DNA from: Patescibacteria group bacterium
GTDB lineage: Bacteria; Patescibacteriota; Patescibacteriia; Magasanikbacterales; GWA2-37-8
Direction: 5' to 3'
DNA: 64,000 nucleotides
NCBI GenBank assembly: GCA_041661385.1
Contig: JBAZUP010000003.1
Span: 36,299-100,298, forward strand
Shown here: one piece after another, positions 9,341 through 47,900 of the stretch
How the letters are laid out: each line of letters starts with the position of its first letter
Position numbering within the stretch: the stretch's first letter is position 1
Program-made: the position numbers and the translations under genes
Notes under the pieces: generated by a model
What the model saw: the letters and a program-made list of their open reading frames with translations, nothing else
Databases searched by the model: none
What the model was told of the DNA's origin: nothing

Positions 9341-9376
9341 CAAACTAACTTATATTAGTTAGCTATAAGGAGAAAT

Positions 9377-9778
9377 GTGTTCAAAGAGCAAAAACGAGAC
9401 TACCGTAGCACCATACTAAACATTCTAAAAAGACACCCGCAACTCTGCCAAAAACTAATTGTCCTTTCAATCGGCTACTTAACGCCAAATAAAGCCGCCG
9501 ACATGATCCGCGCCTACCAACAAAAAACCGGCTGTTACTGCGAATGGATATCCAGCATAGTAGACCGACGAATCAATAAACCAATTTGGAAAACTATGAC
9601 GCCGACCGAACGCCACGATTTCGAGTTGTCTGAAAAACAAATGTACGCTACCGTAACAAAAGAACTAATCTGCGATGCCATCCGCTTGCGAAAACAAACT
9701 TATGGCGCAAAACAAGCTAAAGAAGCTATAAACGCCCAATTAACCGGAACACAAGTGCTATTTGCATCATTCTTTTAA
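9377..9778 (+). CDS. hypothetical protein
   Basis: AAGGAG RBS, GTG start. Confidence 0.5.
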   Translation: MFKEQKRDYRSTILNILKRHPQLCQKLIVLSIGYLTPNKAADMIRAYQQKTGCYCEWISSIVDRRINKPIWKTMTPTERHDFELSEKQMYATVTKELICDAIRLRKQTYGAKQAKEAINAQLTGTQVLFASFF

Positions 9779-9787
9779 GGAGTTATC

Positions 9788-9958
9788 ATGTCCGACAACA
9801 TTAGACATCGAATTTCATATATTCAAGATACCACCGACCAACTTTGGGAAGCAATAATCAACAAAGAACACTCAAAATCATGCGAATTAACCGAAATCCT
9901 GGCAAAACAATCCAAAGAACTAGAAATCGCAATAGAAAAGGAATTAGGAAATGGCTAA
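9788..9958 (+). CDS. small hypothetical protein (56 aa)
   Basis: TAAGGAG RBS; not in ORF track (<60 aa). Confidence 0.4.
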   Translation: MSDNIRHRISYIQDTTDQLWEAIINKEHSKSCELTEILAKQSKELEIAIEKELGNG

Positions 9959-10655
9959 ATTTAAAATAAACGTCCACTGGGAAATGTACGACATAATTGA
10001 AATTGAAGCGCCGACGCTAAAAGACGCAATAGCAATAGTCAATCACGAAAACTTCCCATTGCCGGCAACCGGCGAGTATTTAGACGACAGCTTTCGCGTC
10101 GATGAAGAATATTGCGAAACAATCGAGGAAGATTTTGTAACTATTTCAATCAACGATCATCAAGCTGAATTGCTAAAACAATTTGCCTCCAGCGACAATA
10201 ACACCACGAAAACAGTAATCGAACTATGCCCGCACTGCGAACATGAAGCAACGCTGGAGCTGGAACTCCACGACAATATTCTTGCAAAAACATGTCCGAA
10301 TTGCGGGAAACAATTAATGCTTTGTAGCGAATGTCCCAATAGCCGTTGCAACACTTGCCCGCACAAACCAACCGTTTTGAAAAAATACTCCGTAATGGTG
10401 GAATCCACAGTCATGGCAAGAAACGAAGACGAAGCAATGTGTATAGCCGACACAATACCTTTCAACTCTTTTTACGAAGGTGAAGTACTAAACGCAAGCT
10501 CTGTTAGCGTAGTCGAATTACAACCACAAATACACACAGTATCAGTGCGTATCGAAGTAAACGCAAATAACGCCTGTGAAGCCCAACGTTTAACTGAAGC
10601 AGCAATAAACGTCCTGGACACCGGCATAAATATAAAGGAGCTAAAATGCGCATAA
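9951..10655 (+). CDS. hypothetical protein with internal repeats and a CxxC zinc-ribbon
   Basis: QAELLKQFASS motif repeated in next ORF. Confidence 0.5.
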   Translation: MAKFKINVHWEMYDIIEIEAPTLKDAIAIVNHENFPLPATGEYLDDSFRVDEEYCETIEEDFVTISINDHQAELLKQFASSDNNTTKTVIELCPHCEHEATLELELHDNILAKTCPNCGKQLMLCSECPNSRCNTCPHKPTVLKKYSVMVESTVMARNEDEAMCIADTIPFNSFYEGEVLNASSVSVVELQPQIHTVSVRIEVNANNACEAQRLTEAAINVLDTGINIKELKCA

Positions 10656-10957
10656 GTATTGAAATCACAAACCGCCAAGCCGAATTATTAAAACAATTTG
10701 CCACAAGCAACAACATGGCAACCAGAGATCCGATAGTGCAAATCATCAACAACGACACCAAACTGCCGGTTGCATACTTCTTCACGGTAGAAGAAGCACG
10801 TCGAGTATTCAAACTACGCCGCTACGCATACACCAATCATTCAATTTATCTCGACGCACCAGGCGAGGGAACAGAAGATAGCGACTGGACTCATTTTTAT
10901 CAACTGTTGAAATACATTGCAACAAATATCTGCAACGTCCAGGAGACTACGCCATGA
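10646..10957 (+). CDS. hypothetical protein (shares N-terminal motif with 9951 ORF)
   Basis: NRQAELLKQFATSNN. Confidence 0.45.
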   Translation: MRISIEITNRQAELLKQFATSNNMATRDPIVQIINNDTKLPVAYFFTVEEARRVFKLRRYAYTNHSIYLDAPGEGTEDSDWTHFYQLLKYIATNICNVQETTP

Positions 10958-11071
10958 TTTTTTATATTATATTAGCAATATGGGTTGTATTAATACTACT
11001 TATATCAAAATCGACAAAGCCAATAGAGTTACTAACTAACTTAGTAAGTTAATTAGTAAACAGGAGTAATT

Positions 11072-11665
11072 ATGAAAATACTACAACTAAAAACTTACCC
11101 GTTTTCTGAACTATCAACAAAAGCCAAAACTAAAGTTATTAAAAACTGGAATCACAATATTAACAGCATAAATGAATGCAGTTATCAAGAAATAATTGAA
11201 CAAGCTGCTAATATCATTGGCGTCAAAGTTGTAAATTGGAGCATTGACATCTACACCAAATATTTTGAACTCGAATTCGACCCTTGTTATTACCCGGAAC
11301 AAATAAAATCTTTAACCGGTACCAGATTATACAAATATATCCATAATTTCATCATACCACAAATAACCATTGCAGAACCAAACGACAACGACGGTTATAT
11401 CTGGCTCCGTGACGATTATTACGGCGATGACGGGGCACAATATATCTTTTCGAAAATGTTAGACTTTAACCCCAAAGAAAATAAAAACACAACTTACGAA
11501 ATGTTATCTTTTGCCGTAATCGACTATATTTTTGACATGTGGCAAACAGATGCACAATATCGCGAATTCGAAGAATACTTAGCTGAATATTTTAACCAAA
11601 ACGAATACCTTTTTGACATAGAAAGTAATATAATAAACCAAAGATTATTCAAAGAAGTAGCTTAA
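11072..11665 (+). CDS. hypothetical protein
   Basis: ACAGGAGTAAT RBS. Confidence 0.5.
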   Translation: MKILQLKTYPFSELSTKAKTKVIKNWNHNINSINECSYQEIIEQAANIIGVKVVNWSIDIYTKYFELEFDPCYYPEQIKSLTGTRLYKYIHNFIIPQITIAEPNDNDGYIWLRDDYYGDDGAQYIFSKMLDFNPKENKNTTYEMLSFAVIDYIFDMWQTDAQYREFEEYLAEYFNQNEYLFDIESNIINQRLFKEVA

Positions 11666-11753
11666 GATAGAACAAAAGAGTGATAAATGTATAAAAATAT
11701 TACGCCGTTGCCACCCTGCTTTTTGAAAAATTAATTAACCCAAAGGAGCCTTT

Positions 11754-12164
11754 ATGAACTACAAACGTTTCTGTTTTGGATGGGGAATATTGTTGACATT
11801 TTATTTTCTAATGTGGTATTTCACCGGGTACAACACACTTAACACTTTAATCTTGGCATTGTTAACACAAATAGCACTATTTGCATACGATTTACACAAA
11901 AAAAACAAAATAATATCAACCATGCGAAAACAAATTGAATTTCCGCGAACAAGCACCGAAGGATTGATATTAGAATCAACTTATGCCGTATGGTTTATCA
12001 CCTTAACCAGCATAATAACATATTCAATCCTCATCAGAACAGATATGAAATTATTGATCATTTGCAACTTGGCAATTATCGTATTTTTTCAAATAAGTTA
12101 TCTACACATGAGAGATAATTATATTAAAATTTTGAAACACCTAATTAACGAACAAAATAATTAA
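11754..12164 (+). CDS. small membrane protein (paralog family with 12723 and 22802 ORFs)
   Basis: AAAGGAGCC RBS; TM helices. Confidence 0.5.
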   Translation: MNYKRFCFGWGILLTFYFLMWYFTGYNTLNTLILALLTQIALFAYDLHKKNKIISTMRKQIEFPRTSTEGLILESTYAVWFITLTSIITYSILIRTDMKLLIICNLAIIVFFQISYLHMRDNYIKILKHLINEQNN

Positions 12165-12182
12165 AAACACAAACATGTTCTC

Positions 12183-13024: not shown

Positions 13025-13315
13025 ATGAACCTAAAAATCAAAACACTCGCCGGTTGCAACAAACCAACCTACTCCGAATACCTACAACCAAACGACCAGG
13101 TAGATGAAGACATGGTAGATTATTTCAACGAAGTACTACCACCACTAAAAACCCGTGCCGGTTTAATTCAGTGCAGCGAACCCTACGACCACGTAAACGG
13201 AAAAGCAACATTCACAACTTTTGAGCAAATTGGCAAAGATTGGTTTTATCGCGGCCACTGCCACCACAACGAAACAGAACACAAAATTGGAATTTTTGAA
13301 TTAAATACTAACTAA
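13025..13315 (+). CDS. hypothetical protein
   Basis: AACAGGAGGC RBS. Confidence 0.5.
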   Translation: MNLKIKTLAGCNKPTYSEYLQPNDQVDEDMVDYFNEVLPPLKTRAGLIQCSEPYDHVNGKATFTTFEQIGKDWFYRGHCHHNETEHKIGIFELNTN

Positions 13316-13326
13316 TATTAGTTAGT
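13307..13326. promoter_or_regulatory. perfect 20-bp palindrome ACTAACTAATATTAGTTAGT (member of intergenic operator family)
   Basis: upstream of ligA RBS. Confidence 0.6.
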
Positions 13327-13340
13327 AAACTTAGTAATAA

Positions 13341-15837: not shown

Positions 15838-16050
15838 TCCCCTCCGCGCAATTACGCAAGACAATTACTCGCTCTAGGCGAAAAATGTACGAACAGCAAA
15901 GCGGCGTGTTTGAGTGAAACGAGTTTGCCGTTTGCGGTACATCGCCGTAGAGCGAGTTTGCCTGAAGTACGGCGCTTGACTTTTTTGCTTCCTTTTTGTG
16001 TCAAGACAAAAAGCAAGACGCGAACAGCGGAACACGCACCACGTCCACTG
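15838..16050 (+). repeat. structured intergenic repeat, copy 2 of 3
   Basis: see 3254-3475. Confidence 0.85.
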
Positions 16051-16066
16051 AAAAAAGGATATTATA

Positions 16067-16516
16067 ATGAAAAAATATAAAACCAAATACATCCAACACT
16101 TCGACGACGAGCGCCAAATCGGCAACGGAATAATAGTCACCCTGCACTATGGCTGGTCATACGAGCCAAACGAACACCAAGGCGTGCGAGGTTTTGATAA
16201 AATAACCGAAGCTATCTCGGCATCAAGGCACAAGAACATCTACCCGTGCAAATGTGAATTATGCTTAAGAAACTTAAGGCAGAAAGGAAATAAAATAAAT
16301 GAAAAATTGCAAAAAACAATAAAAGAGCATTATCTAACCCCGGAACTAATAAAACTTCGCGACATCGTTAGTTGTATTGTAGTTATGTGCTACCTGCCCA
16401 AGAAAAAAGAATACGTTGTCTGGTTTTACAACGAAAGTTCCGGATTTTTTCTAGGTTGTTATTACCAAAGCCGCGATGCAGCTGAAATAAAATTCGAAGA
16501 AAGAATTAGTTGCTAA
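16067..16516 (+). CDS. hypothetical protein
   Basis: AAAAGGATATT RBS right after repeat copy 2. Confidence 0.5.
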   Translation: MKKYKTKYIQHFDDERQIGNGIIVTLHYGWSYEPNEHQGVRGFDKITEAISASRHKNIYPCKCELCLRNLRQKGNKINEKLQKTIKEHYLTPELIKLRDIVSCIVVMCYLPKKKEYVVWFYNESSGFFLGCYYQSRDAAEIKFEERISC

Positions 16517-16587
16517 GTTATATAACTAATATAACTTAGTTAGTATAATAAAAGATTTTATGAACATTTAATTAAAAGGAGAATATT

Positions 16588-16963: not shown

Positions 16964-17236
16964 ATGCCACAACGACCATTAACGAAAAAACTACTATCCA
17001 TAATCATTGCAGTACAAGATTATGCGAAATATCACAGAAGTCACAACATTATGCTTCGTAACAACAACATACAAGAAACCAGTTATTGGTTTGAAGAAAC
17101 ACGAGATTATTATTTTGGGTTACCAACAAAAATACTCAAAAACGCCAAGTTAAAACCTTCTACCGACGATTTTGAATATGTTTTATCATTTAAAGTAACG
17201 CCAGAAATGTTAAAAATCGAATTCAAAAACTCTTAA
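16964..17236 (+). CDS. hypothetical protein
   Basis: TAAGGAGTCGCC RBS. Confidence 0.5.
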   Translation: MPQRPLTKKLLSIIIAVQDYAKYHRSHNIMLRNNNIQETSYWFEETRDYYFGLPTKILKNAKLKPSTDDFEYVLSFKVTPEMLKIEFKNS

Positions 17237-17262
17237 TATTCTCCTCGTCGTTCCCCTCCGCG

Positions 17263-17474
17263 CATTACGCAGGGAAACTACTCGCACTAGGCGAAAATTG
17301 TGCGAACAGCAAAGCGGCGTGTTTGAGTGAAACGAGTTTGCCGTTTGCGGCACATCGCCGTAGAGTGAGTTTAACCGGAGTACGGCGCTTGATTTTTTTG
17401 CCTCCTTTTTTTATCAAGAAAAAAAGCAGGACGCGCCAGCGGAAAACGCACTCGTTCCACCTAACGAAAACAAA
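17263..17474 (+). repeat. structured intergenic repeat, copy 3 of 3 (carries compensatory changes)
   Basis: see 3254-3475. Confidence 0.85.
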
Positions 17475-17697
17475 GACTACCAAAAATTCATCGACTATTG
17501 CCAGATACAACTCGACCACTACAGCAACCCATTGGGCAGTCAACCAAGCCGACCAAAAGAGCAAAACAAAGTGTTCCACTTCGATGGCACAAAACTAAAA
17601 CATATTGATTTCACCAAAACAAAATAACTCCTGAAAACCGTTTACCAATAAAACAACGTATACGCCCGCGCAGCGTAACGAGTTTTCACAAAAACAA

Positions 17698-17742
17698 ACG
17701 TCCCGCAAGCATCCGACATAGCTTGCAGGACGTATTTTTTTG
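17698..17742 (+). terminator. rho-independent terminator
   Basis: ACGTCCCGCAAGC...GCTTGCAGGACGT followed by ATTTTTTT. Confidence 0.8.
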
Positions 17743-17777
17743 CAACTATGCGGCAGCATTATTTTTTAGGAGTAAAA

Positions 17778-17927
17778 ATGAAACAACCACCAACTAGGCA
17801 AGAGAATATTCAACAACTTCAAGAACTAACCGACAAAGAATATGACAAATATTTTTGGACCCTTTTTTCTGAAGAAGACATATATCCAGAAAAAGTTATT
17901 TTTCCTTGTTTTGCTCTAAGAAGGTAA
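17778..17927 (+). CDS. small hypothetical protein (49 aa)
   Basis: TTAGGAGTAAAA RBS. Confidence 0.35.
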   Translation: MKQPPTRQENIQQLQELTDKEYDKYFWTLFSEEDIYPEKVIFPCFALRR

Positions 17928-17975
17928 ACCGCAGCAAACATAGTGGACACAGATTTAAAAATATTGGAGGCATAA

Positions 17976-18299
17976 ATGACTTTACTTGAAAGAATACACC
18001 CGCGCGTAGATGTTGTTGATGTTATCAGGGAACAAATCGAAACGTTCAGTGCAGAACAACTAATCAGTATCTGTTATAACCGCTCGTTAGTTGCTGTTGC
18101 CAACCTCATCAGCGATAAGGTATACGAAATGTTGGCGGAGGTAGTACTAAACGAAAACGATAAATTAGAAGACATCAAAATAAAATGGTGCTTTGAAGAT
18201 GCCAGTTCAGAAATAATTAAACTCGGTATTGACATAGCAGTTAGAAAAGATACCAACCTGAGAATAGATTTAATAGATACGATGGAGATTAGCGGTTGA
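17976..18299 (+). CDS. hypothetical protein
   Basis: ATTGGAGGCATAA RBS. Confidence 0.5.
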   Translation: MTLLERIHPRVDVVDVIREQIETFSAEQLISICYNRSLVAVANLISDKVYEMLAEVVLNENDKLEDIKIKWCFEDASSEIIKLGIDIAVRKDTNLRIDLIDTMEISG

Positions 18300-18688
18300 T
18301 GGTTGAAAAAATAAGTTTCCGGGTTACCTTTGTTGATCCAGATTATAGAACAAGTGAACTGGAAGAGAAAATGCACGAATTATTCGCAAACGCAGACGAT
18401 AAAACCGGTATGGCGGTTAAAATCAACATTGAAGAAATTTTCGGACACATACCAAGTATAATAGATCCGCACTGCAACGACACTCCTTCGTTACGAACAT
18501 TTGTTGTTGATGATGTTATTATGAACTACTTCAGTCAGGAGCCAATAGACTTAGACACCACAAAAGGTAAGTCTTTCTATATTCACACCTGTGAAGCACT
18601 ACAACAATACCAACAACGTGATGCTGATTGGGAAGGCATAGAACCTTACGTAAAGAAAGCTTTTGAAGAAAGCGCTTTTAAAATTTAA
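18296..18688 (+). CDS. hypothetical protein (translationally coupled)
   Basis: ATGA-type start/stop overlap. Confidence 0.5.
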   Translation: MMVEKISFRVTFVDPDYRTSELEEKMHELFANADDKTGMAVKINIEEIFGHIPSIIDPHCNDTPSLRTFVVDDVIMNYFSQEPIDLDTTKGKSFYIHTCEALQQYQQRDADWEGIEPYVKKAFEESAFKI

Positions 18689-18736
18689 TACTCAACTATG
18701 TACTAATAACTAAAACAATAATCAAAGAGGTAATAT

Positions 18737-18919
18737 ATGGATGCCTTTCAAAGAATTGTCACAAAATCCATGAGCAACTGCAGAGGTGGCTATAAATGCC
18801 GCCTCTGTGCAGCCTACGGCCAGAAACGTAAAAAATTAGCAAAAGGCAAACAATTATACCGCCAAATAGCCCGAAGCCGACTAAAAAGAATTCTTAAAAC
18901 AATAGATATAGAAAATTAA
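18737..18919 (+). CDS. small basic Cys-containing protein
   Basis: AAAGAGGTAATA RBS. Confidence 0.45.
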   Translation: MDAFQRIVTKSMSNCRGGYKCRLCAAYGQKRKKLAKGKQLYRQIARSRLKRILKTIDIEN

Positions 18920-18986
18920 TTAATATTGATTAACAAATAAATTTAACCACTATATTATACATACTGTATAATAAGGAATAACAATT

Positions 18987-19217
18987 ATGAACGAAAATGA
19001 AATGGCTTTAATTGTTGCAATACTATCACCAAAAACATTAACCATTGAAGCCTCTTTTGCTCGAATAAGCAACGAGTTTGCAAAATATTCAAATGAAGAT
19101 ATTGTAGATATGATCGAATTAAAGAAAACAATGACCTACAAACAAATTGCTGATATTTATAACATCACCCCGGATGCAGTATATAACAAAATACGCCGAT
19201 TCACCGGGAAAATATAA
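18987..19217 (+). CDS. small HTH protein (sigma-70 region 4 / LuxR-like C-terminal helix-turn-helix)
   Basis: MTYKQIADIYNITPDAVYNKIRR. Confidence 0.5.
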   Translation: MNENEMALIVAILSPKTLTIEASFARISNEFAKYSNEDIVDMIELKKTMTYKQIADIYNITPDAVYNKIRRFTGKI

Positions 19218-19246
19218 AACACTATAATAGGAGAGAACTAAACAAC

Positions 19247-19519
19247 ATGCTAAACCTTCTCGCGCTAATACTCCCATCTATAATTGTAGGTAACATTTTA
19301 GCGTATTTAATCACTAAACATCCCGAACAAACCAGACAATTCGGGCTTTTTATTCAAAATGAAAATACCGTTCTAATAACATCCATTATAACAACTATTA
19401 TGCTCGTTAAGACAATACTATTTGCCGAAACAACTAAACGAAAGATGAACACTTTAATCGGTGCATTAATAGTATCAATTATTTTCAATGGCATATTCGT
19501 CTACATAAAATTTCAATAA
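19247..19519 (+). CDS. membrane protein
   Basis: hydrophobic helices. Confidence 0.45.
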   Translation: MLNLLALILPSIIVGNILAYLITKHPEQTRQFGLFIQNENTVLITSIITTIMLVKTILFAETTKRKMNTLIGALIVSIIFNGIFVYIKFQ

Positions 19520-19534
19520 AACTAAGAGGTAATA

Positions 19535-20068
19535 ATGAACCTGATAAAAAAACGTATTATTTTAGATGCAGCTTTGCTAATAACTACTCTTTTGTTAATA
19601 ATTGCCACTATTCTCATCATACCTATTTATTTTGAAGCACTCTTTTCAGTGTTGTTTCAACACCTGACGCTTTTCACAATTTGGCTCAAAATTAACATGT
19701 ATTGGTTACTTGCCACGTCAGTATTATTAATAATCATTACAACGTTTTTCAAAACAAATATCTATGTTAAACTTACCATAAACAACGTATTTAAATACAT
19801 AATAATAGCAGCTGTGTATTTTACGTGGACAAAATTTACCGAATTTCACAATATCACAGAATGTAGCGGTGGAAAATACAACACCAATCTTTTTTGTCTC
19901 TACACAATATTCTTTTCAATTTATTTTATACTCAAATTAGTCGACATCGCGGGGCGTCAAACCAACTATTATAAAAACCATCTTATCAAACAGGAAAAAC
20001 TAAGAAAAGAAAAAGAACTTGATATAATACGTACAGAATTTAGTAAAAAAATGTGGCATCACGAATAA
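19535..20068 (+). CDS. polytopic membrane protein
   Basis: AAGAGGTAATA RBS. Confidence 0.5.
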   Translation: MNLIKKRIILDAALLITTLLLIIATILIIPIYFEALFSVLFQHLTLFTIWLKINMYWLLATSVLLIIITTFFKTNIYVKLTINNVFKYIIIAAVYFTWTKFTEFHNITECSGGKYNTNLFCLYTIFFSIYFILKLVDIAGRQTNYYKNHLIKQEKLRKEKELDIIRTEFSKKMWHHE

Positions 20069-20384
20069 TTAGGAGAAATATGGGCCCAATAATAGAAGAT
20101 AAATTCCCGATAAAAATCGGATTGCCACCTGAAAAAGAGTGTAAACACCTAATACGCCGCTGTTATTCTCCAAATGATCCGACAAAAAGCCACAAAAACT
20201 TGCAAATATTAAGATTTTAGAATTAATAATAAAACCATGGTGCAATAAAAAAAATACCTGGTGTCATCGTAAGAATTGTTTAGACGCACCAAAACCAACC
20301 GAAAAAACCAATTTCTCTTACACTCCAAACGGTTGGGCGACAATTCGCTAAATATAATTGTAAAATTAAGAAAGCACAGAAAAT

Positions 20385-20807
20385 ATGAACAATCTCACAA
20401 TTTATGAATGGATACCAGAATATCATTGGGTAGCATTTAGACACATGTGCGCCGACCGCAATTTACTGTATATGACCGAACTAATGCCACTAATCGATGA
20501 GCTGCAAAGTTGGGAAGGAATCGGACCAAAGAGATATGCTGAATTGCGAGATAAACTGCTGCCGTATAATACTGCAGATATTAAAAACTATCGACTAACG
20601 ATAGCTGGTGCTTTTAATCCTCCTGCATTCGTTAAATTTCGATTGTGGTGCAAAGAACAAGGATTTCAACACTTTGACGAACTAAACGAAGAAATTTTCA
20701 ATAATAAAATATTACCATTGAAAAAAGGTAATCTTTACGATACGAGAAAAAGATACGACGTAATCAAAACACGAGTATTCGAACTACGTGGAAAAAGATT
20801 TTTGTAA
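20385..20807 (+). CDS. hypothetical protein
   Basis: ORF track; weak RBS. Confidence 0.45.
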   Translation: MNNLTIYEWIPEYHWVAFRHMCADRNLLYMTELMPLIDELQSWEGIGPKRYAELRDKLLPYNTADIKNYRLTIAGAFNPPAFVKFRLWCKEQGFQHFDELNEEIFNNKILPLKKGNLYDTRKRYDVIKTRVFELRGKRFL

Positions 20808-20835
20808 AAGCAAAAAAATTAATGAGGTAATAGTA

Positions 20836-21237
20836 ATGTTAGGTGATAAAATAAAACAATTACGTATTGACAAGGAAGTGCAACAAAAAGAACTCGCAAA
20901 TATAATGAATGTCACTGTTAGCGCTGTCAGTATGTGGGAAACTAACATGCGTGTTCCGGAAGTAGCCACATTACAACGCATAGCCGAGTATTTCGGTGTA
21001 ACTATTGATTCTTTACTTGGGACAAATAAACAATCAGTATTACCAATCCCGGAAACTAAAGATGAAATAATTATCTGTTTTAGATGCGAAGGTAAAGGCA
21101 TCAGAGACAGTTGTTTCGGATGGCCATCTTACGGCACAGAAAAATGTGATGAATGCCGCGGCAGTGGTAGATTGTTAAAACAAACTAGTTATGTTGCATA
21201 TAAACCTGAAAAGGCAGTAAAAAATGATAAAAACTAG
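20836..21237 (+). CDS. XRE-family HTH regulator fused to DnaJ-type CxxCxGxG zinc-finger
   Basis: N-terminal IKQLRIDKEVQQKELANIMNVTVSAVSMWE...; C-terminal CFRCEGKG...CDECRGSG; GAGGTAATA RBS. Confidence 0.6.
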   Translation: MLGDKIKQLRIDKEVQQKELANIMNVTVSAVSMWETNMRVPEVATLQRIAEYFGVTIDSLLGTNKQSVLPIPETKDEIIICFRCEGKGIRDSCFGWPSYGTEKCDECRGSGRLLKQTSYVAYKPEKAVKNDKN

Positions 21238-21565
21238 AAACATTTACCCCTGTGACACAAAAATAGTATTTACAACTACTGACGTTAGAAGTAATTTAAG
21301 CGACGACGGAAAACCAATAAGCTTGAAACACGCACTAAATACCGGTATCTGCACTCATTTCAACGAAAAAGAACTTACCGCTGAAGAACAAGTATGCTTT
21401 GCAACCATCGTGAAGCTATATGAGCAAAATCACAACTTAAATAACAACCAGCCAATACCAAAAAATATTTTTAATCATTTTCGTCTAATATTCTCGTTGA
21501 TTAAAAATGACAACGAAACCGCAAATTTATTGCTAAAAAAACTATCGGAAACTGAGGCAACATAA
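21224..21565 (+). CDS. hypothetical protein (paralog of 32355-32630)
   Basis: EEQVCFATIVKLYEQN motif shared. Confidence 0.45.
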   Translation: MIKTRNIYPCDTKIVFTTTDVRSNLSDDGKPISLKHALNTGICTHFNEKELTAEEQVCFATIVKLYEQNHNLNNNQPIPKNIFNHFRLIFSLIKNDNETANLLLKKLSETEAT

Positions 21566-21867
21566 TGTTTGAAACGATTAATATAGTTTTATGTTCTTGG
21601 ATTACACAGTTCATTCTTTCGCTATTATCAACGATAATATTTTGTTTACTCATGTTAGTACCTAGAGAATTTGATTTTGGCTGTTTTTTAGGTGCAATTT
21701 TAGGAATCACGGGTATGATCTTTTTTATAGTGTTTCCACAAAACATAATGTTTATAAATTCTATTTTTACCGCGATATTTACCACGTTAATCGGTGTTAT
21801 AGTTTTCGTAATGGCAATTTTAACAAGCATAGGAACTTTTTATAATTTCAAAAAAATAAAATCATAA
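21565..21867 (+). CDS. membrane protein
   Basis: hydrophobic. Confidence 0.45.
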   Translation: MFETINIVLCSWITQFILSLLSTIIFCLLMLVPREFDFGCFLGAILGITGMIFFIVFPQNIMFINSIFTAIFTTLIGVIVFVMAILTSIGTFYNFKKIKS

Positions 21868-21899
21868 AAATATCGACATCAAGGAGAACATTAATAATT

Positions 21900-22085
21900 A
21901 TGAACAAATGTACATTTTGTGGCCGCGAAAGCGAAAGTCATAAAACTAAATTCGTAGGCGGACACGGAATTTTGGAGTGCTGCACTGATTGCGAAGCAGA
22001 AATATTAGAAGGTCAATTAGAATACGAAAACGATTTTGGAAACGAATCGTTAGAAAACAATCCAAAAAGTCAAACAGATAATTAG
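21900..22085 (+). CDS. zinc-ribbon small protein
   Basis: CTFCG...CCTDC. Confidence 0.45.
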   Translation: MNKCTFCGRESESHKTKFVGGHGILECCTDCEAEILEGQLEYENDFGNESLENNPKSQTDN

Positions 22086-22217
22086 CAACTTTAATCCAAT
22101 CTTGAAACCCGAAAATAACTCGAACGTCCTCTGTGTCAAGTTCGTGTATTCGCCACACTTGACACACCGTCCTGTTCTTCATTACTTCTAATATTGATAT
22201 GTTTATTGGGGGTTAAT

Positions 22218-22760: not shown

Positions 22761-22801
22761 ATTTTGATGTATAATGCAAACAATTTTAAGGAATGAATAT
22801 T

Positions 22802-23011
22802 ATGAAAACTTATTTAACGCCAATGTATTTTTTATGGGGCGCGTTGATATCTAGTGAACTACTAGCGTGGTATTTTAACGGTTTTAATCCAATAGCAATA
22901 TTTGCTTTAATTGGAACCCTATCTGCGATCGTTATCTGCCTAATATCTGAAATTTGCAGATTAAACGAATATATTGAAAATTACGAAAAAAGTAAAACTA
23001 ATGTTATATGA
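22802..23011 (+). CDS. small TM protein (YIENYEK family)
   Basis: paralog of 12723-12938. Confidence 0.45.
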   Translation: MKTYLTPMYFLWGALISSELLAWYFNGFNPIAIFALIGTLSAIVICLISEICRLNEYIENYEKSKTNVI

Positions 23012-23141
23012 AATTCACATACCAAAAAAATAAAACATTGAACATTTAAATAATTTTGCGTATAATAACATTAAAACAACAAACAATTATGTTAAAAACA
23101 TAACAAAACTAATCAAATATTTAAAGAAAGAAGTGATCAAA

Positions 23142-23309: not shown

Positions 23310-23311
23310 TT

Positions 23312-32632: not shown

Positions 32633-32658
32633 AAACTTAGTTTACTAACTAAGTTTTA
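32633..32658. promoter_or_regulatory. 10-bp inverted repeat AAAACTTAGT..ACTAAGTTTT (operator family)
   Basis: seen directly. Confidence 0.5.
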
Positions 32659-32812
32659 TAACTAACATTAGTTAAATAAGTTAACCAGACTTATACTACC
32701 AATACCCCACCCTCGTCAAACCGTCAATATTTCGCATCATTGACCGCTTGACATCGTGTATGGAAAAATTTTGCCATAATTCAAATTAATTCTAACAAAA
32801 AGGAAAAAGAAA

Positions 32813-34663: not shown

Positions 34664-34945
34664 ATGAGAACAGCAGAACAAAATTTAGAGTTTCAAACGC
34701 AATTTGCTATCCGAAAAGCTATACGAATAATTGAATTAGGAAGTGAAATACTCAGCGTAACAAACAAACCGCGTAAACTCGCAAACCGATTAGCAGTAGC
34801 CAGAGAAAATCTAGCAGAAATGCTTGAATCACTTCAGTTTTGTGAAAATGAAATCAAAGAATTAATTAACAAAGAAAACACTAATAGCGACGGCGTTTAT
34901 TCTGAAGTTATTGAGCATTGTTGTCTGCGAAGTGATTACAACTAA
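34664..34945 (+). CDS. hypothetical protein
   Basis: TAAGGAGTTAAA RBS. Confidence 0.5.
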   Translation: MRTAEQNLEFQTQFAIRKAIRIIELGSEILSVTNKPRKLANRLAVARENLAEMLESLQFCENEIKELINKENTNSDGVYSEVIEHCCLRSDYN

Positions 34946-34961
34946 GTTATATAACTTAGTT
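34940..34961. promoter_or_regulatory. perfect 22-bp palindrome AACTAAGTTATATAACTTAGTT (operator family)
   Basis: upstream of 34979 ORF. Confidence 0.6.
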
Positions 34962-35744: not shown

Positions 35745-35939
35745 TTCTTTTTAAGGAGTTCCCGTGAATAATAAATATCATCCACCGTAGCGTACCTCCC
35801 TAGTAAACCAATATACAACAAATTATATATTAAACATAAGACTAATAAATCAACGCCTGTGTAAACTCGGCCACACGCCGCACTTTTACCCAGGCGTTTT
35901 ATTTTACTTACTAACTAATAATAGTTAGTAAGCTTTTAT

Positions 35940-36255: not shown

Positions 36256-36474
36256 ATGACAATATTTAAGGGACAAAAAGTTGTTAGAAAATCGACCGCA
36301 GCAAAAGTACTACAAGAATGTAACACTTTAAGCTTATTCGATACTACATCAAAATATGCGGTTGCAAACCGTCAAATCTTGAATAGCTTACCGACAAGTA
36401 TTCCAACACTTTTCACTGTTGTTACCGAAGAAAACGGGAACAAAGCCATTCAAGAATATTTCGTAACTAACTAA
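36256..36474 (+). CDS. hypothetical protein
   Basis: AGAGGAGAAAAA RBS. Confidence 0.45.
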   Translation: MTIFKGQKVVRKSTAAKVLQECNTLSLFDTTSKYAVANRQILNSLPTSIPTLFTVVTEENGNKAIQEYFVTN

Positions 36475-36615
36475 TATTACTAAGTAAACTTAGTTAGTGA
36501 TATTAGTTATGGAGAGTTCTCCGTTGCTAAATGCGTAATCCCGGAAAAGCGATTTATTCGCACTCTCCCCTACTCCCTATTTCTTATTAATAATAAATAT
36601 TTTTTGGAGAAGAAA

Positions 36616-37624: not shown

Positions 37625-37704
37625 TTTTCATGCCAATATTTGACAACCACGTAAAACGGTTATATAATTAAATTGTTACATGAAACGTTGCAAAGGAGGC
37701 TGAA

Positions 37705-37923: not shown

Positions 37924-38246
37924 CACGTGGTGATATAGTTACAGTGGCGCCACCAGGCGAATTTGGAAAACCACGACCAGCTATCGTCATTCAATCTGAT
38001 TTTTTTGCACAGACTGAAACGGTTGTTGTTTTATTAATCACTAGCGAATTAAGAGACTTACCGCTTATCAGAGTCTCAATAGAAACTGACCAATTCAGCG
38101 GGTTAAATAAACCATCACAAATTATGTTAGACAAAATAATGACCGTTAAACGAGAAAAAATAGGAACGGTATTTGGAAAAATAACCAAAGACAAACTGCT
38201 GGACATTGAAATAAAACTAGCGGTATTTTTAGGAATAGCAAAATAA
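37908..38246 (+). CDS. PemK/MazF-family endoribonuclease toxin
   Basis: GLTRGDIVTVAPPGEFGKPRPAIVIQSD...VVVLLITSE. Confidence 0.75.
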   Translation: MEMGLTRGDIVTVAPPGEFGKPRPAIVIQSDFFAQTETVVVLLITSELRDLPLIRVSIETDQFSGLNKPSQIMLDKIMTVKREKIGTVFGKITKDKLLDIEIKLAVFLGIAK

Positions 38247-38253
38247 CAAAAAA

Positions 38254-38285
38254 ACAGGTCCGCTTCGGCGGATCTGTTTTTTTCT
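38254..38285 (+). terminator. rho-independent terminator (UUCG loop)
   Basis: ACAGGTCCGC-TTCG-GCGGATCTGT followed by TTTTTTTC. Confidence 0.8.
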
Positions 38286-38361
38286 TTCAACACTAAACAA
38301 ATTTAACCAATTAACAAAACTAACTTATATAACTTAGTTTTGTTAATCCAAAAGGATTTTT

Positions 38362-38943: not shown

Positions 38944-39003
38944 AAATTGACACTCATTTATATGTACATTATAATGTACGCATAGAATAGGAGGTGTTTT
39001 ATA

Positions 39004-39258: not shown

Positions 39259-39511
39259 AGTCTTTTTTAGTAAAAAAGCTATATCCGACATTCCGAAATT
39301 GAAAGCCGCCAACCTTATTGACAAAGCAAAAGCACTAGAAAATATTATTAGAGACAATCCACTTAAAAATCCACCGCCTTATGAAAAATTACAAGGAAGC
39401 GCACAAGGATTATATTCACGACGAATTAATATTAAACATCGCCTTGTGTATCAAGTATTCGAAACAGAAAAAATAGTGAAAATCATAAGAATGTGGAGCC
39501 ACTACGAATAA
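39251..39511 (+). CDS. yoeB: YoeB/Txe-family toxin
   Basis: ...HRLVYQVFETEKIVKIIRMWSHYE; 8-nt overlap with yefM. Confidence 0.75.
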   Translation: MYEVFFSKKAISDIPKLKAANLIDKAKALENIIRDNPLKNPPPYEKLQGSAQGLYSRRINIKHRLVYQVFETEKIVKIIRMWSHYE

Positions 39512-39540
39512 AAACCAACCTTAATCGGTTGGTTTTTTTA
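39512..39540 (+). terminator. rho-independent terminator
   Basis: AACCAACC...GGTTGGTT followed by TTTTTAT. Confidence 0.75.
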
Positions 39541-39560: not shown

Positions 39561-39594
39561 GAACCAAGTTATACTAACTTATATAACTTGGTTC
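39561..39594. promoter_or_regulatory. 13-bp-arm inverted repeat GAACCAAGTTATA..TATAACTTGGTTC
   Basis: upstream of 39609 ORF. Confidence 0.5.
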
Positions 39595-40509: not shown

Positions 40510-40551
40510 AAACTAAGTAAACTAACTAATATTAATTAGTTTACTTAGTTT
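40510..40551. promoter_or_regulatory. 16-bp-arm inverted repeat AAACTAAGTAAACTAA-10-TTAGTTTACTTAGTTT (operator family)
   Basis: upstream of 40565 ORF. Confidence 0.6.
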
Positions 40552-40564: not shown

Positions 40565-42193
40565 TTGAAAACACTAATGACCGTATCAATCCCTGTCATG
40601 TTCGACGGCTACTATTATGGCGTCAACACTAAAGACTTAACAACACAACCCAACGCCAGCTGGAATCGTGCCATCCAAATATATTGTTCACATTGCAAAA
40701 AATATCACGTCCTGGCCTTTGCTGCCGTGTGTACAATGATGGGTGGCGCCGACGCAAATCAACGAAGACACTGCCCAAATTGCGGCAAATTCTTAAACAA
40801 CTGGAATTGCCAAACACACGGCGTAAATCAATTGGAGCCGCTATCGGGAAATATATCCTTGATTGAACATAAAAACATGATCGGCTTATCTTTTAAAGGC
40901 AAAGGCATAACTTTTGGCGATTTATCCTACAAAAAAAGTGACTACTCTGAGATAGTTCTGTTTGATTTAGAAAACAACACAACCCATTGGAAAATCGGTA
41001 AAATAACCTACCGACTAGGCAATCCCGACGACAAAACATTTTACGAAAAAAGTTTTTTCGATTATCTATACCGCAATTGCCATTTATACAAGGAAGATAA
41101 AACCTACAAACAAGACCTTGATATTTTATTTAAGGAGTTATTGACGCAACTATCCGCAAAAATGAATAAACTCCATTTTTCCAAACAATCGCTCTATACA
41201 AATTACGGCAGCATTGAACAACACGGCCGCTATTTACCGCAAATATTTAATATCGCCTACCGAATCGCATTCCCGGATTGTACTAACCTGTCAAGAAACT
41301 TCTCCAACAGATATGAAGCGCCTTCCTGCCCTTCAATCGGCAAGAACTATCAAACCATCAAAACCGCAATTGCGAACGGTGCAGATAGCATTACGGCGAT
41401 AATAACTGCGGTAGAATTACCGAACACCAAACTGATTCGAAAAATAGTATCCCAAAGTATTTTATCAATTGAACGTTTAAAAATGATTTTTAATCACATC
41501 AAAAATTATGACAACGCCATGAAAATTTGGAATGCTAATGAATACAGCAGCTATCAGGAACAAGAACTTATTTTCCTAAAATCGTTAACCAAAATTTACG
41601 ACGAAACACAATTAGTAAATTACTATCTAACAAAACACGCAGATTTTGGAGAAACAAAACGACTCTACGACTATAACTATTTCTCTACCACACAACTCAA
41701 AAAAGAAAAAGTGAAATTCTCCGACTTACATAACTGGTGCGTTGAAAAAAACAAACTTCGCCAAGAAAAAGAAGAATTATTAAAAACAAGAGATCCGGAA
41801 ACAAAATTCGAACTACCACCCGCAATTATCCGACGATTAGAAATGCAACGCGATATATTCAGCTTTTTCCTACCGGAATCACAAGCCGAATTAAACTTCG
41901 CCGGCAACCAACTTCACAATTGTTTAAGAACCTACGATAAAGAAATGGAAAACAAAGCCGACGCTTCAGCAAAAATTGTGTTAGTGGCTGATGATTTTGG
42001 AAAACTCGTAGCCGCAGTTAGGATTAATAATTTTGTGATTACTGAAGCAAAATTAAAATACAATAAATCTGCCAAAACCGATTCGGAAATAAACAGTAAA
42101 ATAATCCAGTGGGCAAAAACCGTAAAATTAACAATCAATACCAATGATATAGACGAAAATTTAGAGTTTGATATCACAAAACTAGCAGCATAA
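40565..42193 (+). CDS. large hypothetical protein with N-terminal Cys4-type zinc-binding motifs (start uncertain: TTG 40565 or ATG 40577)
   Basis: CSHCKKYH...CPNCGKF; CCAGGAGA RBS. Confidence 0.5.
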   Translation: MKTLMTVSIPVMFDGYYYGVNTKDLTTQPNASWNRAIQIYCSHCKKYHVLAFAAVCTMMGGADANQRRHCPNCGKFLNNWNCQTHGVNQLEPLSGNISLIEHKNMIGLSFKGKGITFGDLSYKKSDYSEIVLFDLENNTTHWKIGKITYRLGNPDDKTFYEKSFFDYLYRNCHLYKEDKTYKQDLDILFKELLTQLSAKMNKLHFSKQSLYTNYGSIEQHGRYLPQIFNIAYRIAFPDCTNLSRNFSNRYEAPSCPSIGKNYQTIKTAIANGADSITAIITAVELPNTKLIRKIVSQSILSIERLKMIFNHIKNYDNAMKIWNANEYSSYQEQELIFLKSLTKIYDETQLVNYYLTKHADFGETKRLYDYNYFSTTQLKKEKVKFSDLHNWCVEKNKLRQEKEELLKTRDPETKFELPPAIIRRLEMQRDIFSFFLPESQAELNFAGNQLHNCLRTYDKEMENKADASAKIVLVADDFGKLVAAVRINNFVITEAKLKYNKSAKTDSEINSKIIQWAKTVKLTINTNDIDENLEFDITKLAA

Positions 42194-42242
42194 ACTAACT
42201 AAGTTTAGTTAGTAATATTAGTTAGTAGAAAGGTTTTAATTT

Positions 42243-44074: not shown

Positions 44075-44079
44075 ACTAA

Positions 44080-44115
44080 CTAATATTACTAACTAAGTTT
44101 AGTTAGTAATATTAG
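44080..44115. promoter_or_regulatory. ~17-bp-arm inverted repeat TAATATTACTAACTAAG/TTTAGTTAGTAATATTA (operator family) with embedded TAATAT -10
   Basis: upstream of 44129 ORF. Confidence 0.55.
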
Positions 44116-44128
44116 TAAAAGAGGTAAA

Positions 44129-44709: not shown

Positions 44710-44793
44710 ATTATTTTTAATAACACAATTTTACTAAGTAAACTAACTAACATTACTAACTAAGTTTACTTAGTTTAATAACTAAGGAGAAAT

Positions 44794-45999: not shown

Positions 46000-46080
46000 T
46001 CACGAATAAGAAATTATTACATAAACTAACATTACTAAGTAAACTTAGTTAGTAATGTTAGTTATACACAAAGGAGAATA

Positions 46081-46497: not shown

Positions 46498-46512
46498 CAA
46501 AGGAGCTTTACA

Positions 46513-46716
46513 ATGAATGAAATACTCCACTTGCCGATTTGGCATATATCGCAAAACAAAACAGATATAGCACCAATTATACATTTTGCCTGGTGGAAAA
46601 GTTTAGATAAAGAATCACCAAACGCCGAAGCTGCTAATAATTTCATAACGTCCTTCATAAGAACCCACGGCGAAACAGCTTTTTTTCAAAGCCTGAGCAC
46701 GCCACTAAGCATATAA
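46513..46716 (+). CDS. hypothetical protein
   Basis: CAAAGGAGCTTTAC RBS. Confidence 0.4.
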   Translation: MNEILHLPIWHISQNKTDIAPIIHFAWWKSLDKESPNAEAANNFITSFIRTHGETAFFQSLSTPLSI

Positions 46717-46724
46717 TTTATCTA

Positions 46725-46790
46725 TTGACAAAACTAATATTACTAAGTAAACTTAGTTAGTAATATTAGTTTTATTAGTTAAGTTAGTAG
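46725..46790 (+). promoter_or_regulatory. sigma70-like promoter (TTGACA-17-TAAACT) overlapped by ~40-bp ACTAA/TTAGT palindromic operator
   Basis: TTGACAaaactaatattactaagTAAACT; AACTAATATTACTAAGT / ACTTAGTTAGTAATATTAGTT inverted repeat. Confidence 0.55.
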
Positions 46791-46823
46791 TTTGAATTAA
46801 TAAATTAAAAGGAAAGAACGTTA

Positions 46824-47186
46824 ATGCTTTTTACTATACTTATATTCCTCTCATTAGGATTTGCAATTATCTTCGCAATAGTTAAAACAGATACCGACAA
46901 ACAACAAAAAGTCTGTATCCGATTATCAATAATATCGTTTTTGATATTTTTAGCACTTATTGCATACATCAACCTAAAACCAGCCGAATATGTGACATTA
47001 ACCGTTGCTCGTATTAATTCAAATACCACTTCAAACGCATGTGATATTTTATCTGACAAAGATTATTACTCCGACGTATATAGATTTGGAAACGTAAAAA
47101 CCGGCGATAAAATAACATTAGAGAAAAGAACGTTTATACCCGGTTGGATCGTTATAAAAATTAACGAAATATCAACAACAAATTAA
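46824..47186 (+). CDS. membrane-anchored protein
   Basis: AAAAGGAAAGAACG RBS. Confidence 0.45.
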   Translation: MLFTILIFLSLGFAIIFAIVKTDTDKQQKVCIRLSIISFLIFLALIAYINLKPAEYVTLTVARINSNTTSNACDILSDKDYYSDVYRFGNVKTGDKITLEKRTFIPGWIVIKINEISTTN

Positions 47187-47200
47187 AAAAGGAGTCTAAT

Positions 47201-47638
47201 GTGTCATATTTATCTTTTTTCACTTCAACATCTTTCATAGCTTTTGTAGTCCTAATATTTTTTCAATTATTTATCTTAAATTTTTCCAATCTTGCATTTT
47301 TAACCTCGATAATCACGTCGTTAGCATTCGCGATACTTTATGTAGCGATAAAATTTTTCACCGAAAAACAACGTGAAAAGGAAAATGAAAATTTCTGGAC
47401 AACAGAAAGCGACCGAGAAAAATTGTGCAAAGATTTTATATCACGCTATAACTTTTCAGAAACTGAAGCTGATTTGTATTTTAATTTATGTCTAAAAAGC
47501 GAGAATTTTCTCAAAGAATCACTTAAACCTCAACGAACAAATAAAGACAAATTAGAGTTTAGATTAATGCAAAACAAAGTTAATACAATTAAAACAATGA
47601 TGGAAATGTTTAAACTAGAAATACGAATAAAAAACTAA
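47201..47638 (+). CDS. membrane protein
   Basis: AAAGGAGTCTAA RBS; GTG start. Confidence 0.45.
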   Translation: MSYLSFFTSTSFIAFVVLIFFQLFILNFSNLAFLTSIITSLAFAILYVAIKFFTEKQREKENENFWTTESDREKLCKDFISRYNFSETEADLYFNLCLKSENFLKESLKPQRTNKDKLEFRLMQNKVNTIKTMMEMFKLEIRIKN

Positions 47639-47666
47639 CTAATATAACTTAGTTGCAAGGAGAAAT

Positions 47667-47858
47667 ATGCAAGTAGGAGACAGAGTTTTAGTAAAATCTG
47701 CCGCCGGTACACGTGAACGAATTATTGACAGAGAAACCAAATTATATTGGATAATCAACGGTTTAAAATATCACAAAAAAACTCTATGCAGAGCAAGTGC
47801 AGATGGTTGGAACACTGGTTATATCAAAGAAATCGAACGACAAAATATTAAAAACTAA
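47667..47858 (+). CDS. hypothetical protein
   Basis: CAAGGAGAAATATG. Confidence 0.45.
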   Translation: MQVGDRVLVKSAAGTRERIIDRETKLYWIINGLKYHKKTLCRASADGWNTGYIKEIERQNIKN

Positions 47859-47900
47859 CTAAGTTTACTTAGTAACATTAGTTGAAACGAAAGGAGAAAT

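Follow-up and report, generated by a model that had tools for sequence, protein, structure and literature searches.

A few model plasmids (IncP, Inc18, and the pLS20 family) are known to place genes all over the replicon under one small repressor. Reg576, from the conjugative plasmid p576 of Bacillus (pLS20 family), is a ribbon-helix-helix (RHH) repressor whose boxes lie before establishment operons, including its own (PMC6294495, PMC8708921). These boxes are heptamers spaced by 2 bp, which gives a period of 9 bp; an inverted copy lies at a distance of 11 bp, and each heptamer is bound by one dimer (PMC6294495). After transfer, the establishment genes are expressed in a transient burst until the repressor accumulates (PMC6294495, PMC8708921). 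With Omega of pSM19035 (Inc18), each 7-bp repeat binds one dimer whether it is direct or inverted, and binding is cooperative (PMC9499535). In the type Ib partition system ParF/ParG/parH of TP228, a small Walker ATPase precedes an RHH protein whose N-terminal tail is mobile (PMC3130281), while KorB of the IncP-1 plasmids RK2/RP4 is a helix-turn-helix (HTH) ParB-CTPase, which slides on DNA and acts at a distance with KorA (PMC11790492, PMC4889941). Here we analyzed a 64,000-nt stretch (the window) of contig JBAZUP010000003.1 (assembly GCA_041661385.1, positions 36,299 to 100,298), which is part of a circular conjugative plasmid. One short palindromic motif recurs in front of many of its genes, and the same regulatory logic may operate in this 106-kb conjugative plasmid, which is of Gram-negative type, comes from an uncultured bacterium, and is unrelated to the model plasmids.

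The motif is a 20-bp palindrome, ACTAA[C/G]TAA-NN-TTA[C/G]TTAGT, found in front of about 18 gene groups. A previous sequence-only reading of the window had listed 18 positions, and ACTAA/TTAGT inverted repeats were present at all of them (18/18). The sequences that it quoted were also recovered, namely ACTAACTAATATTAGTTAGT at 13307-13326, AACTAAGTTATATAACTTAGTT at 34940-34961, and a 42-bp palindrome at 40510-40551. Among the 18, the one at 39561 is a variant (AACCAAGTT...AACTTGGTT around one ACTAAC), and those at 11028 and 32633 are degenerate arrays. The core ACTAASTAANNTTASTTAGT was matched 18 times with at most two mismatches (0.01 expected) and 22 times with at most three (0.13 expected). 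Every core match fell within the listed sites, and therefore none had been missed by the first list. Clusters of at least three ACTAA/TTAGT boxes numbered 15, compared with 0.155 in dinucleotide shuffles (maximum 3), and 14 of the 15 were intergenic. All core matches lay in the non-coding 13% of the window; since the other 87% is coding, this placement is itself far from chance. The real genes of the window are on the + strand throughout, and the sites are as follows.

Site 1, 9343..9364: core ACTAACTTA-TA-TTAGTTAGC; the GTG at 9377 lies 13 nt 3'.
Site 2, 11028..11061: degenerate array (two forward, two reverse boxes); the ATG at 11072 lies 15 nt 3'.
Site 3, 13306..13335: [ACTAACTAA]TA[TTAGTTAGT][AAACTTAGT]; overlaps the stop of the open reading frame (ORF) 13025-13315; NAD-dependent ligase gene (13365) 30 nt 3'.
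Site 4, 16512..16544: GCTAAGTTATATAACTAATATAACTTAGTTAGT; 5' of gene 16588.
Site 5, 32633..32676: degenerate, five boxes; directly follows the stop at 32630; next gene 141 nt off.
Site 6, 34940..34961: perfect 22-bp palindrome AACTAAGTTATATAACTTAGTT; 5' of gene 34979 and the DUF4325-like gene 35226.
Site 7, 35907..35932: CTTACTAACTAATAATAGTTAGTAAG; alone in a 350-nt gap; also terminator-like in the scan.
Site 8, 36463..36511: four units (2 forward, 2 reverse); overlaps the stop at 36474; 5' of gene 36616 and ssb (37050).
Site 9, 38310..38347: 38-bp palindrome around ACTAACTTATATAACTTAGT; 3' of a terminator-like hairpin (38245-38286) and 5' of gene 38362.
Site 10, 39561..39594: variant palindrome GAACCAAGTTATACTAACTTATATAACTTGGTTC; 3' of a terminator (39510-39537) and 5' of gene 39609.
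Site 11, 40510..40551: [ACTAAGTAA][ACTAACTAA]TA[TTAATTAGT][TTACTTAGT]; 2 forward and 2 reverse units; 5' of the PcfJ-like gene (40565).
Site 12, 42194..42226: one forward and 2-3 reverse units; abuts the stop at 42193; 5' of gene 42243 and the C5 cytosine methyltransferase gene (42464).
Site 13, 44075..44116: four units, perfect 18-nt arms; 5' of gene 44129 and the MazG-like gene 44434.
Site 14, 44733..44785: seven boxes; the DnaN-like sliding-clamp gene (44794) lies 9 nt 3'.
Site 15, 46023..46064: four units; 5' of a DUF4325-like gene (46081).
Site 16, 46725..46790: largest array, 2 forward and 4 reverse units; heads the gene run ending in parA and the RHH gene; may be the main operator or the centromere.
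Site 17, 47633..47654: ACTAACTAA-TA-TAACTTAGT; overlaps the stop at 47638; a 63-aa gene (47667) lies 14 nt 3'.
Site 18, 47853..47883: [ACTAACTAA]GT[TTACTTAGT][AACATTAGT]; 1 forward and 2 reverse units; overlaps the stop at 47858; parA lies 19 nt 3'.

The sites are restricted to two blocks, 9.3-16.5 kb and 32.6-47.9 kb. No sites were found at 17-32.6 kb, in the part encoding replication and the type IV secretion system (T4SS), or within 10 kb of the window on either side; together, the window and these flanks cover about 84 kb of the approximately 106-kb plasmid. The distance from the end of a site to the next start codon was mostly 9-44 nt, with exceptions at 32633, 35907, and 36463 (109-166 nt). 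The sequence-only reading had also considered that the motif might be a general feature of the host. The exact core gave 83 single hits in 185,579 species genomes, which is close to the chance frequency, and no genome carried many copies. In the genomes searched, the motif is therefore not a general host feature. The proposal of a plasmid-wide regulon fits with one element-specific motif before many gene groups of a conjugative plasmid.

The building block of the sites is a 9-bp unit, ACTAANNNN, in which ACTAA is followed by a variable tetranucleotide, in many cases CTAA, GTAA, TATT, or CATT. These units are placed head-to-head around a 2-bp center with one to four on each side, and extra units keep the 9-bp register. 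The spacing between neighboring boxes was 4 bp in 21 cases and 9 bp in 17 when both had the same orientation, and 11 bp in 9 cases and 7 bp in 4 when they converged. Unpaired extra units are present at 13307, 42194, 46733, and 47854. An HTH dimer that occupies one palindrome cannot use such units, while proteins that bind as one dimer per short unit can, which favors a binder of the RHH type. The asymmetric 20-mer ACTAAGTAAACTTAGTTAGT, which contains a G-G mismatch, occurs in five copies, three forward and two reversed; its function is therefore orientation-independent, and its TAAACT cannot be a general -10 element. Folded as hairpins, the long sites reached -18.9 to -23.5 kcal/mol (z = -4.3 to -6.2), whereas the short sites folded weakly, at -3.5 (z = -2.0), -6.2 (z = -1.0), and -7.6 kcal/mol (z = -1.4). 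The short sites retain the boxes yet fold poorly, and thus it is the box sequence, not pairing, that the sites have in common. The Rfam scan matched nothing at the sites. An array of 9-bp units on 16-18 intergenic regions is established at the level of sequence. Upstream ORFs stop inside the first unit at 13315, 34945, 36474, 47638, and 47858, and just before it at 9340, 16516, 42193, and 44074. As ACTAACTAA has TAA in two frames and the arrays stop all six, the sites are also frame-independent translation stops.

A recognizable gene for a DNA-binding protein positioned behind motif sites was found only in the par operon, at whose 5' side lie the sites at 46730-46790 (six units), 47633, and 47853. 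The operon contains the following features.

47901..48677, + strand: parA, a 258-aa Walker-type ATPase (AAA_31, 1.3e-49; CbiA, 2.2e-19; KGGVGKT at residues 11-17).
48683..48922, + strand: a 79-aa Cys-rich, zinc-ribbon-like protein, between parA and the RHH gene.
48919..49173, + strand: the RHH gene, encoding the proposed binder (84 aa); last gene of the parA operon; its start overlaps the preceding stop; strong ribosome-binding site AAGGAGG.
49258..49287, + strand: a predicted terminator-like hairpin with a T run (CCGACG-cattct-CGTCGG), which closes the operon.

ParA has no N-terminal DNA-binding domain, and the 79-aa protein had no match in Pfam, HicA included. The RHH protein consists of an approximately 40-residue low-confidence N-terminal tail and a C-terminal ribbon-helix-helix with the beta-strand KTFLLRLP. 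It matched Pfam HicB (RHH) with 23.8 bits (cut-off 21), and the name of its NCBI record MFA6105962.1, "HicB family antitoxin," reflects the domain only. In the AlphaFold2 (AF2) model, residues 41-80 had predicted local distance difference test (pLDDT) scores of 84-92, and residues 1-40 scores of 56-63. The top Foldseek hits were almost all RHH proteins (Arc, VapB, AtaR, AmrZ, and ParG), with non-significant E-values, and a Mnt-like alignment was obtained at E = 1. The small Walker ParA, the predicted downstream RHH protein with a flexible tail, and the adjacent repeat array would make up a type Ib-like partition locus.

The exact core was then searched in species genomes (185,579; 596 Gb), IMG/VR, and metagenomes, which gave 212 loci (1.39 Mb, 18,089 ORFs). 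Hits outside the plasmid were mostly single and at about chance frequency. In the JGI metagenomes, no copy of the composite 29-nt motif was found, and in the literature the motif string turned up only in primers and stop cassettes. When all window proteins were compared with the 18,089 ORFs (phmmer), exactly one RHH homolog was obtained (E = 1.1e-5). It is encoded by L168, an unrelated 11-kb mobilizable plasmid-like contig carrying Rep, a putative MobC-like protein, a resolvase homolog, a 207-aa ParA, and the 76-aa RHH protein. The two RHH proteins are 35% identical (BLASTP E = 6e-11) and share an identical DNA-reading beta-strand KTFLLRLP, while the two ParA proteins have the P-loop alone in common, and the 79-aa gene has no counterpart in the L168 operon. 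In L168, [ACTAACTAA]GC[TTACTTAGT][ACACTTAGT] adjoins the stop codon of the RHH gene, with the same one-forward/two-reverse grammar as the sites at 13307 and 47854. Between a TTGACA promoter and the parA ribosome-binding site there is a second inverted repeat, whose boxes are ACTAA/GCTAA and TTAGC/TTAGT. No other window protein had a homolog adjoining the motif among the 212 loci. Only L168 links the boxes independently to a protein, and it points to the RHH protein.

The motif-bearing genes form a long co-oriented run of small genes 5' of rep and par. The run includes genes for an NAD-dependent ligase, a DUF4942 methyltransferase, a C5 cytosine methyltransferase, and DnaN-like clamp, PcfJ-like, and MazG-like proteins, together with a putative SSB-like gene, a RadC-family gene (Pfam record of the contig), and two toxin-antitoxin pairs provisionally named PemK-like and Phd/YoeB-like. 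Such gene classes in a single orientation are typical of plasmid leading regions (PMC11541004).

We therefore propose, with a probability of about 0.55, that dimers of the RHH protein encoded in the plasmid's par operon (48919-49173) dock onto the boxes; this protein would regulate the plasmid widely. The sequence-only reading had named this ParG-like protein among its candidate binders, and it is now favored by its position behind motif sites and by its homolog beside boxes in L168. By analogy with Omega, ParG, and Reg576, one RHH dimer would bind per 9-bp unit in either orientation, with cooperation between neighbors. The protein would autoregulate par via 46730, 47633, and 47853, and the arrays may form a centromere with ParA. 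It would also repress the co-oriented establishment genes for the ligase, the two DNA methyltransferases, SSB, the sliding clamp, and the PcfJ-like and MazG-like proteins. A new recipient would be free of repressor, and these genes could fire briefly until the RHH protein accumulates. If this holds, partition and regulation of the Omega type would be united with establishment timing of the Reg576 type, and a simple portable pair of box and protein would be available.

Compared with the described systems, the plasmid resembles the Reg576 regulon (EGeRS2) in the 9-bp box period, in the 11-bp inverted spacing, and, as far as the sequence tells, in the position of boxes before the par/RHH operon and the ligase, methyltransferase, SSB-region, clamp, and PcfJ-like genes. 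However, the Reg576 box is TTATCCC, of which the window has four single copies and no dual motif; there is no detectable sequence similarity; four promoters face 16-18 sites here; and the Reg576 promoters are canonical and tested, while a promoter match was found at two sites only in the window. Reg576 is also not encoded in a partition operon, and its host is Gram-positive, in contrast to the Gram-negative-type T4SS and secretin here. Like the proposed RHH protein, Omega has a flexible N-terminal tail, is the centromere-binding partner of a Walker ParA (Delta), and regulates multiple promoters (PMC9499535), and arrays of short contiguous repeats, mixed direct and inverted, are found in both. 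The Omega repeats are 7-bp WATCACW heptads instead of 9-bp ACTAANNNN units, and a tandem WATCACW pair was not found in the window. Omega acts through six parS sites at three promoter types, on copy number, partition, and toxin-antitoxin functions but not on establishment genes (PMC9499535). The extra 79-aa gene between parA and the RHH gene is a further difference from Omega, and Pfam Omega_Repress (PF07764) scored the RHH protein at 14.5 bits (E = 0.042), below the cut-off of 33.3. ParG shares a centromere/operator of degenerate short boxes with AT-rich spacers that tolerates rearrangement (PMC3130281), but it uses ACTC boxes with 4-bp spacers at par-locus sites only and showed no sequence similarity beyond the fold. 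The resemblance to KorA/KorB noted by the sequence-only reading survives as a loose functional analogy: KorB is likewise a partition DNA-binding protein that doubles as a plasmid-wide regulator via backbone operators, and the coupling protein of the plasmid is closest (44%) to IncP-type TraG. No gene of the ParB/KorB type was seen in the sequence examined, where parA is followed by the genes of the 79-aa and 84-aa proteins, OB (TTTAGCSGCTAAA) and OA (GTTTAGCTAAAC) were both absent from the window (0 each), and, unlike in IncP, the transfer and replication genes are site-free. The system can thus be likened to Reg576 and Omega, and more loosely to KorB, while it belongs to none of these families by sequence or operator. 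What would be new is an orphan RHH family, the 9-bp ACTAA unit, the unusually large number of 16-18 sites over leading-region-like genes, and the placement of the regulator in the par operon.

Several points weigh against this proposal. The weakest link of the mechanism is promoter control at most sites. Promoters were scored with the sigma-70 consensus or weight matrix, which may not be the host's rules. The palindromes had been said to overlap -35/-10 elements, which was seen at 46725 (TTGACA-17-TAAACT) and 42168-42196 (TTGATA-17-TAAACT) but was not general (2 of about 16 sites), and the former, at site 16, is the sole strong promoter match overlapping a site. The best upstream promoter scores by weight matrix did not differ between motif genes and others (median 5.2 vs 5.3, p = 0.36). 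Perfect 12/12 promoters (TTGACA-17-TATAAT) were found at 37640-37668 and 38947-38975, before the PemK-like and Phd/YoeB-like pairs; they are the only strong canonical promoters of the motif-rich block, and both are without ACTAA boxes. With 2 of about 16 sites on good sigma-70 promoters and the toxin-antitoxin modules at 12/12, a repressor of many promoters is not established. A promoter-operator reading would cover these two sites, and the others may be promoter-operators or mere protein-binding sites (roadblock or centromere-like). The AF2 monomer puts a helix where the RHH strand is expected, with Foldseek E-values as given above. In L168, the upstream site is a variant whose boxes are 5 bp apart instead of 4. 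The RHH family is an orphan: a word-index search returned the protein itself only, exhaustive HMMER one remote match (P0122) among 1.84 billion representatives, and a scan of viral_contigs with a two-sequence RHH profile none, and the link between protein and boxes consequently rests on a single second replicon. The gene run is taken as a putative leading region, with the direction of transfer read from gene content and orientation only. In addition, the approximately 22 kb of plasmid beyond the 84 kb examined could encode another binder, and the identical 20-bp palindrome is demonstrably tied to a TetR clade elsewhere. A tblastn search of PLSDB with the RHH protein gave one further weak match (E = 0.1), on Trichlorobacter lovleyi pGLOV01; it lies 5' of repA beside another palindrome (TGTATATATAATATACA) and is uninformative on ACTAA.

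A 20-bp palindrome with 9-bp half-sites is the classic target of an HTH dimer, and the exact core ACTAACTAA-NN-TTAGTTAGT was found 3-57 nt 5' of a conserved TetR-family gene (TetR_N, 66.6 bits). A strict filter gave at least 16 GTDB loci of this kind; among 120 metagenome loci there were 32, and a hidden Markov model (HMM) identified 72 of the 212 loci. The TetR gene (MKQEDTKQKILDKALELFS...SLYNHF) belongs to uncultured Oscillospiraceae/Clostridia and a few other lineages (L003, L005, L009, L021, L023, L024, L027, L028, L035, L047, L052, L053, L055, L072, L075, and others), and the palindrome often lies just after TATAAT, between the -10 element and the ribosome-binding site, so that it is probably the autoregulatory operator of the clade. 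The sites of the window could accordingly be operators of such a TetR protein, encoded in the rest of the plasmid or by the host, or of a plasmid XRE protein, but we consider this unlikely. No TetR homolog was detected in the 84 kb (tblastn; HMM from 16 operator-linked TetR genes), and L168 carries boxes and an RHH gene without TetR. The TetR-linked cores are isolated palindromes beside their own TetR gene (70 of 72), whereas all eight exact cores of the window have 1-4 extra boxes nearby, in multi-unit arrays with unpaired units. The XRE genes, which the sequence-only reading had offered as binders (three tandem genes at 27530-28959 and an XRE-DnaJ fusion), did not hold up: they lie in the site-free 17-32.6-kb block with no motif nearby, and no XRE homolog adjoined the motif in the motif-selected loci. 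A CI-like/Cro-like pair upstream of the window has an intergenic region without the motif. The palindromes might instead act as hairpins, either as mRNA stem-loops (stability, RNase III) or as priming or single-stranded DNA (ssDNA) promoter signals on the transferred strand, which seems rather improbable. The folding of the long sites, a symmetric C/G change at 46024/46063 that preserves pairing, the position between co-oriented genes with leading-region hallmarks (SSB, orphan methyltransferases, toxin-antitoxin; PMC11541004), the DnaG-type primase encoded by the plasmid, and the missing canonical promoter at most sites are all consistent with it. Against this, the short sites fold weakly, the box sequence is kept in unpaired units, the G-G mismatch is conserved in five copies, the ubiquitous 5-bp box is left unexplained, and Rfam gave no match. 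The stems of 9-21 bp are also too short for both -35 and -10 elements, which the long imperfect hairpins of Frpo/ssi carry. A combination of both ideas is a long shot: the palindromes would form hairpins on the incoming single strand, recreating duplex RHH boxes and an AT-rich, -10-like center before each establishment gene. If true, they would be miniature repeated single-strand regulatory elements distinct from Frpo, and an anti-defense leading region would be timed by a partition protein.

That the motif is itself a class of promoter, read by an alternative sigma factor, by an activator, or as a weak -10-only element via the central TATATA/TAATAT, was judged very unlikely. Between 38 and 48 kb, nearly all intergenic gaps longer than 45 nt contain a motif site or a toxin-antitoxin promoter, the sites at 38318 and 39561 follow terminator-like hairpins, so that some promoter must lie there, and the motif is rich in TAnnnT hexamers. 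On the other hand, ACTAAGTAAACTTAGTTAGT can face either way with respect to the gene that follows, the sites differ in how many units they have and in what order, and sigma factor or RNA polymerase genes were not seen in the 84 kb. The L168 boxes, 3' of a canonical TTGACA promoter and after the operon stop, also take the positions of an operator and a centromere. Least probable of all are selfish or neutral palindromes resembling repetitive extragenic palindromic (REP) sequences, or stop-codon-rich spacers, with no dedicated binder. The intergenic-only placement, the upstream ORFs ending in the first unit at five sites and directly before it at four, and an IS605-family TnpB gene 9 kb upstream of the window would suit them. 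However, REP sequences and bacterial interspersed mosaic elements (BIME) have many chromosomal copies, while no multi-copy genome was found among the 185,579 species representatives, which may not include the true host. The unit number varies in a strict 9-bp register, unlike in fixed-length REPs, the boxes co-occur with a homologous RHH gene in a second replicon, and a gene for a Y1 transposase (RAYT) was not seen.

One 20-bp palindrome may thus serve two or more unrelated types of DNA-binding protein, and tandem arrays also occur in phage-like contigs. In L091 (IMGVR_UViG_3300031867_000025, 5984-10819), L101 (Ga0326513_10004585, 6906-9875), and L156 (Ga0326511_10002175, 6999-10982), the 20-bp palindrome is repeated in tandem as [ACTAACTAA]NN[TTAGTTnnn] in several intergenic regions, with 16 and 11 copies in L091. 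These contigs have no protein in common with the window, and Pfam gave nothing for the small ORFs of L091 and L101. In a Treponema metagenome-assembled genome (MAG), three related palindromes (L059) lie 3' of a glycosidase gene in a chromosomal setting.

The extent of the plasmid was read from a counterpart contig in an ENA metagenome, ERZ27249449 k141_1704730 (105,912 bp), which encodes identical proteins. Both ends of the window map onto it with a discrepancy of 141 nt, equal to the k-mer length of the assembler; the element is therefore circular and about 105.8 kb. The approximately 22 kb beyond the 84 kb examined corresponds to about 42,000-64,500 of this contig. The contig runs on into a cluster of VirB8/9/10, VirB4, TrbL, and PilN/secretin genes, and topoisomerase III and VirD4 are encoded on the window (Pfam). 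Megablast with 20 kb of the plasmid gave no match in PLSDB and INPHARED. The closest relatives are at most 53% identical for ParA, 44% for Rep (on 2-3-kb contigs), and 44% for VirD4, and comparative footprinting of the sites is impossible because these relatives are so distant. The replication and mobilization features are as follows.

49629-50831, + strand: Rep3 initiator (Pfam), with 21-bp iterons on both sides.
49373-49614 and 50875-50914: Rep3 iterons, 21-bp repeats AAATATGGTCAACTACGAC; at least nine copies 5' of rep and one 3'.
53301-54695, + strand: MobA/MobL relaxase (Pfam).

The ORF at 49428-49607 is an artifact of the iterons. The 227-bp gap (53074-53300) that precedes the relaxase gene has an inverted repeat, GGCGCC..GAAGGCGC, and is probably the origin of transfer (oriT). 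The source MAG was placed by NCBI in "Patescibacteria group," yet genes for VirB9/CagX and a secretin, and a pilus cluster of the PilN type, are present on the plasmid. These genes point to a host with an outer membrane, and the binning of the MAG is therefore doubtful.

Two tRNA genes were found at 1186-1271 and 1304-1384 on the + strand (Rfam tRNA, 55.3 and 48.7 bits). The 16-kb motif-free block at 17000-32600 has a lower GC content (0.31-0.35) and many small membrane proteins. It carries a putative serine recombinase gene (24675-25259), the three tandem XRE genes, and the XRE-DnaJ zinc-finger fusion, and looks like an insertion dividing the motif-bearing region. Three copies (3256-3476, 15841-16061, and 17254-17474; 79-90% identical) were found of a GC-richer, non-coding repeat about 220-260 nt long, and the ORFs 3325-3534, 15910-16080, and 17389-17598, which lie on it, are spurious. 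Folded as ssDNA, the minus strand of the approximately 220-nt repeat reached -46.6 kcal/mol (z = -3.6), with TTGAC boxes in the arms of its hairpins. The repeat is a candidate for an element of the Frpo/ssi kind, a single-strand promoter or a signal for priming in a leading region.

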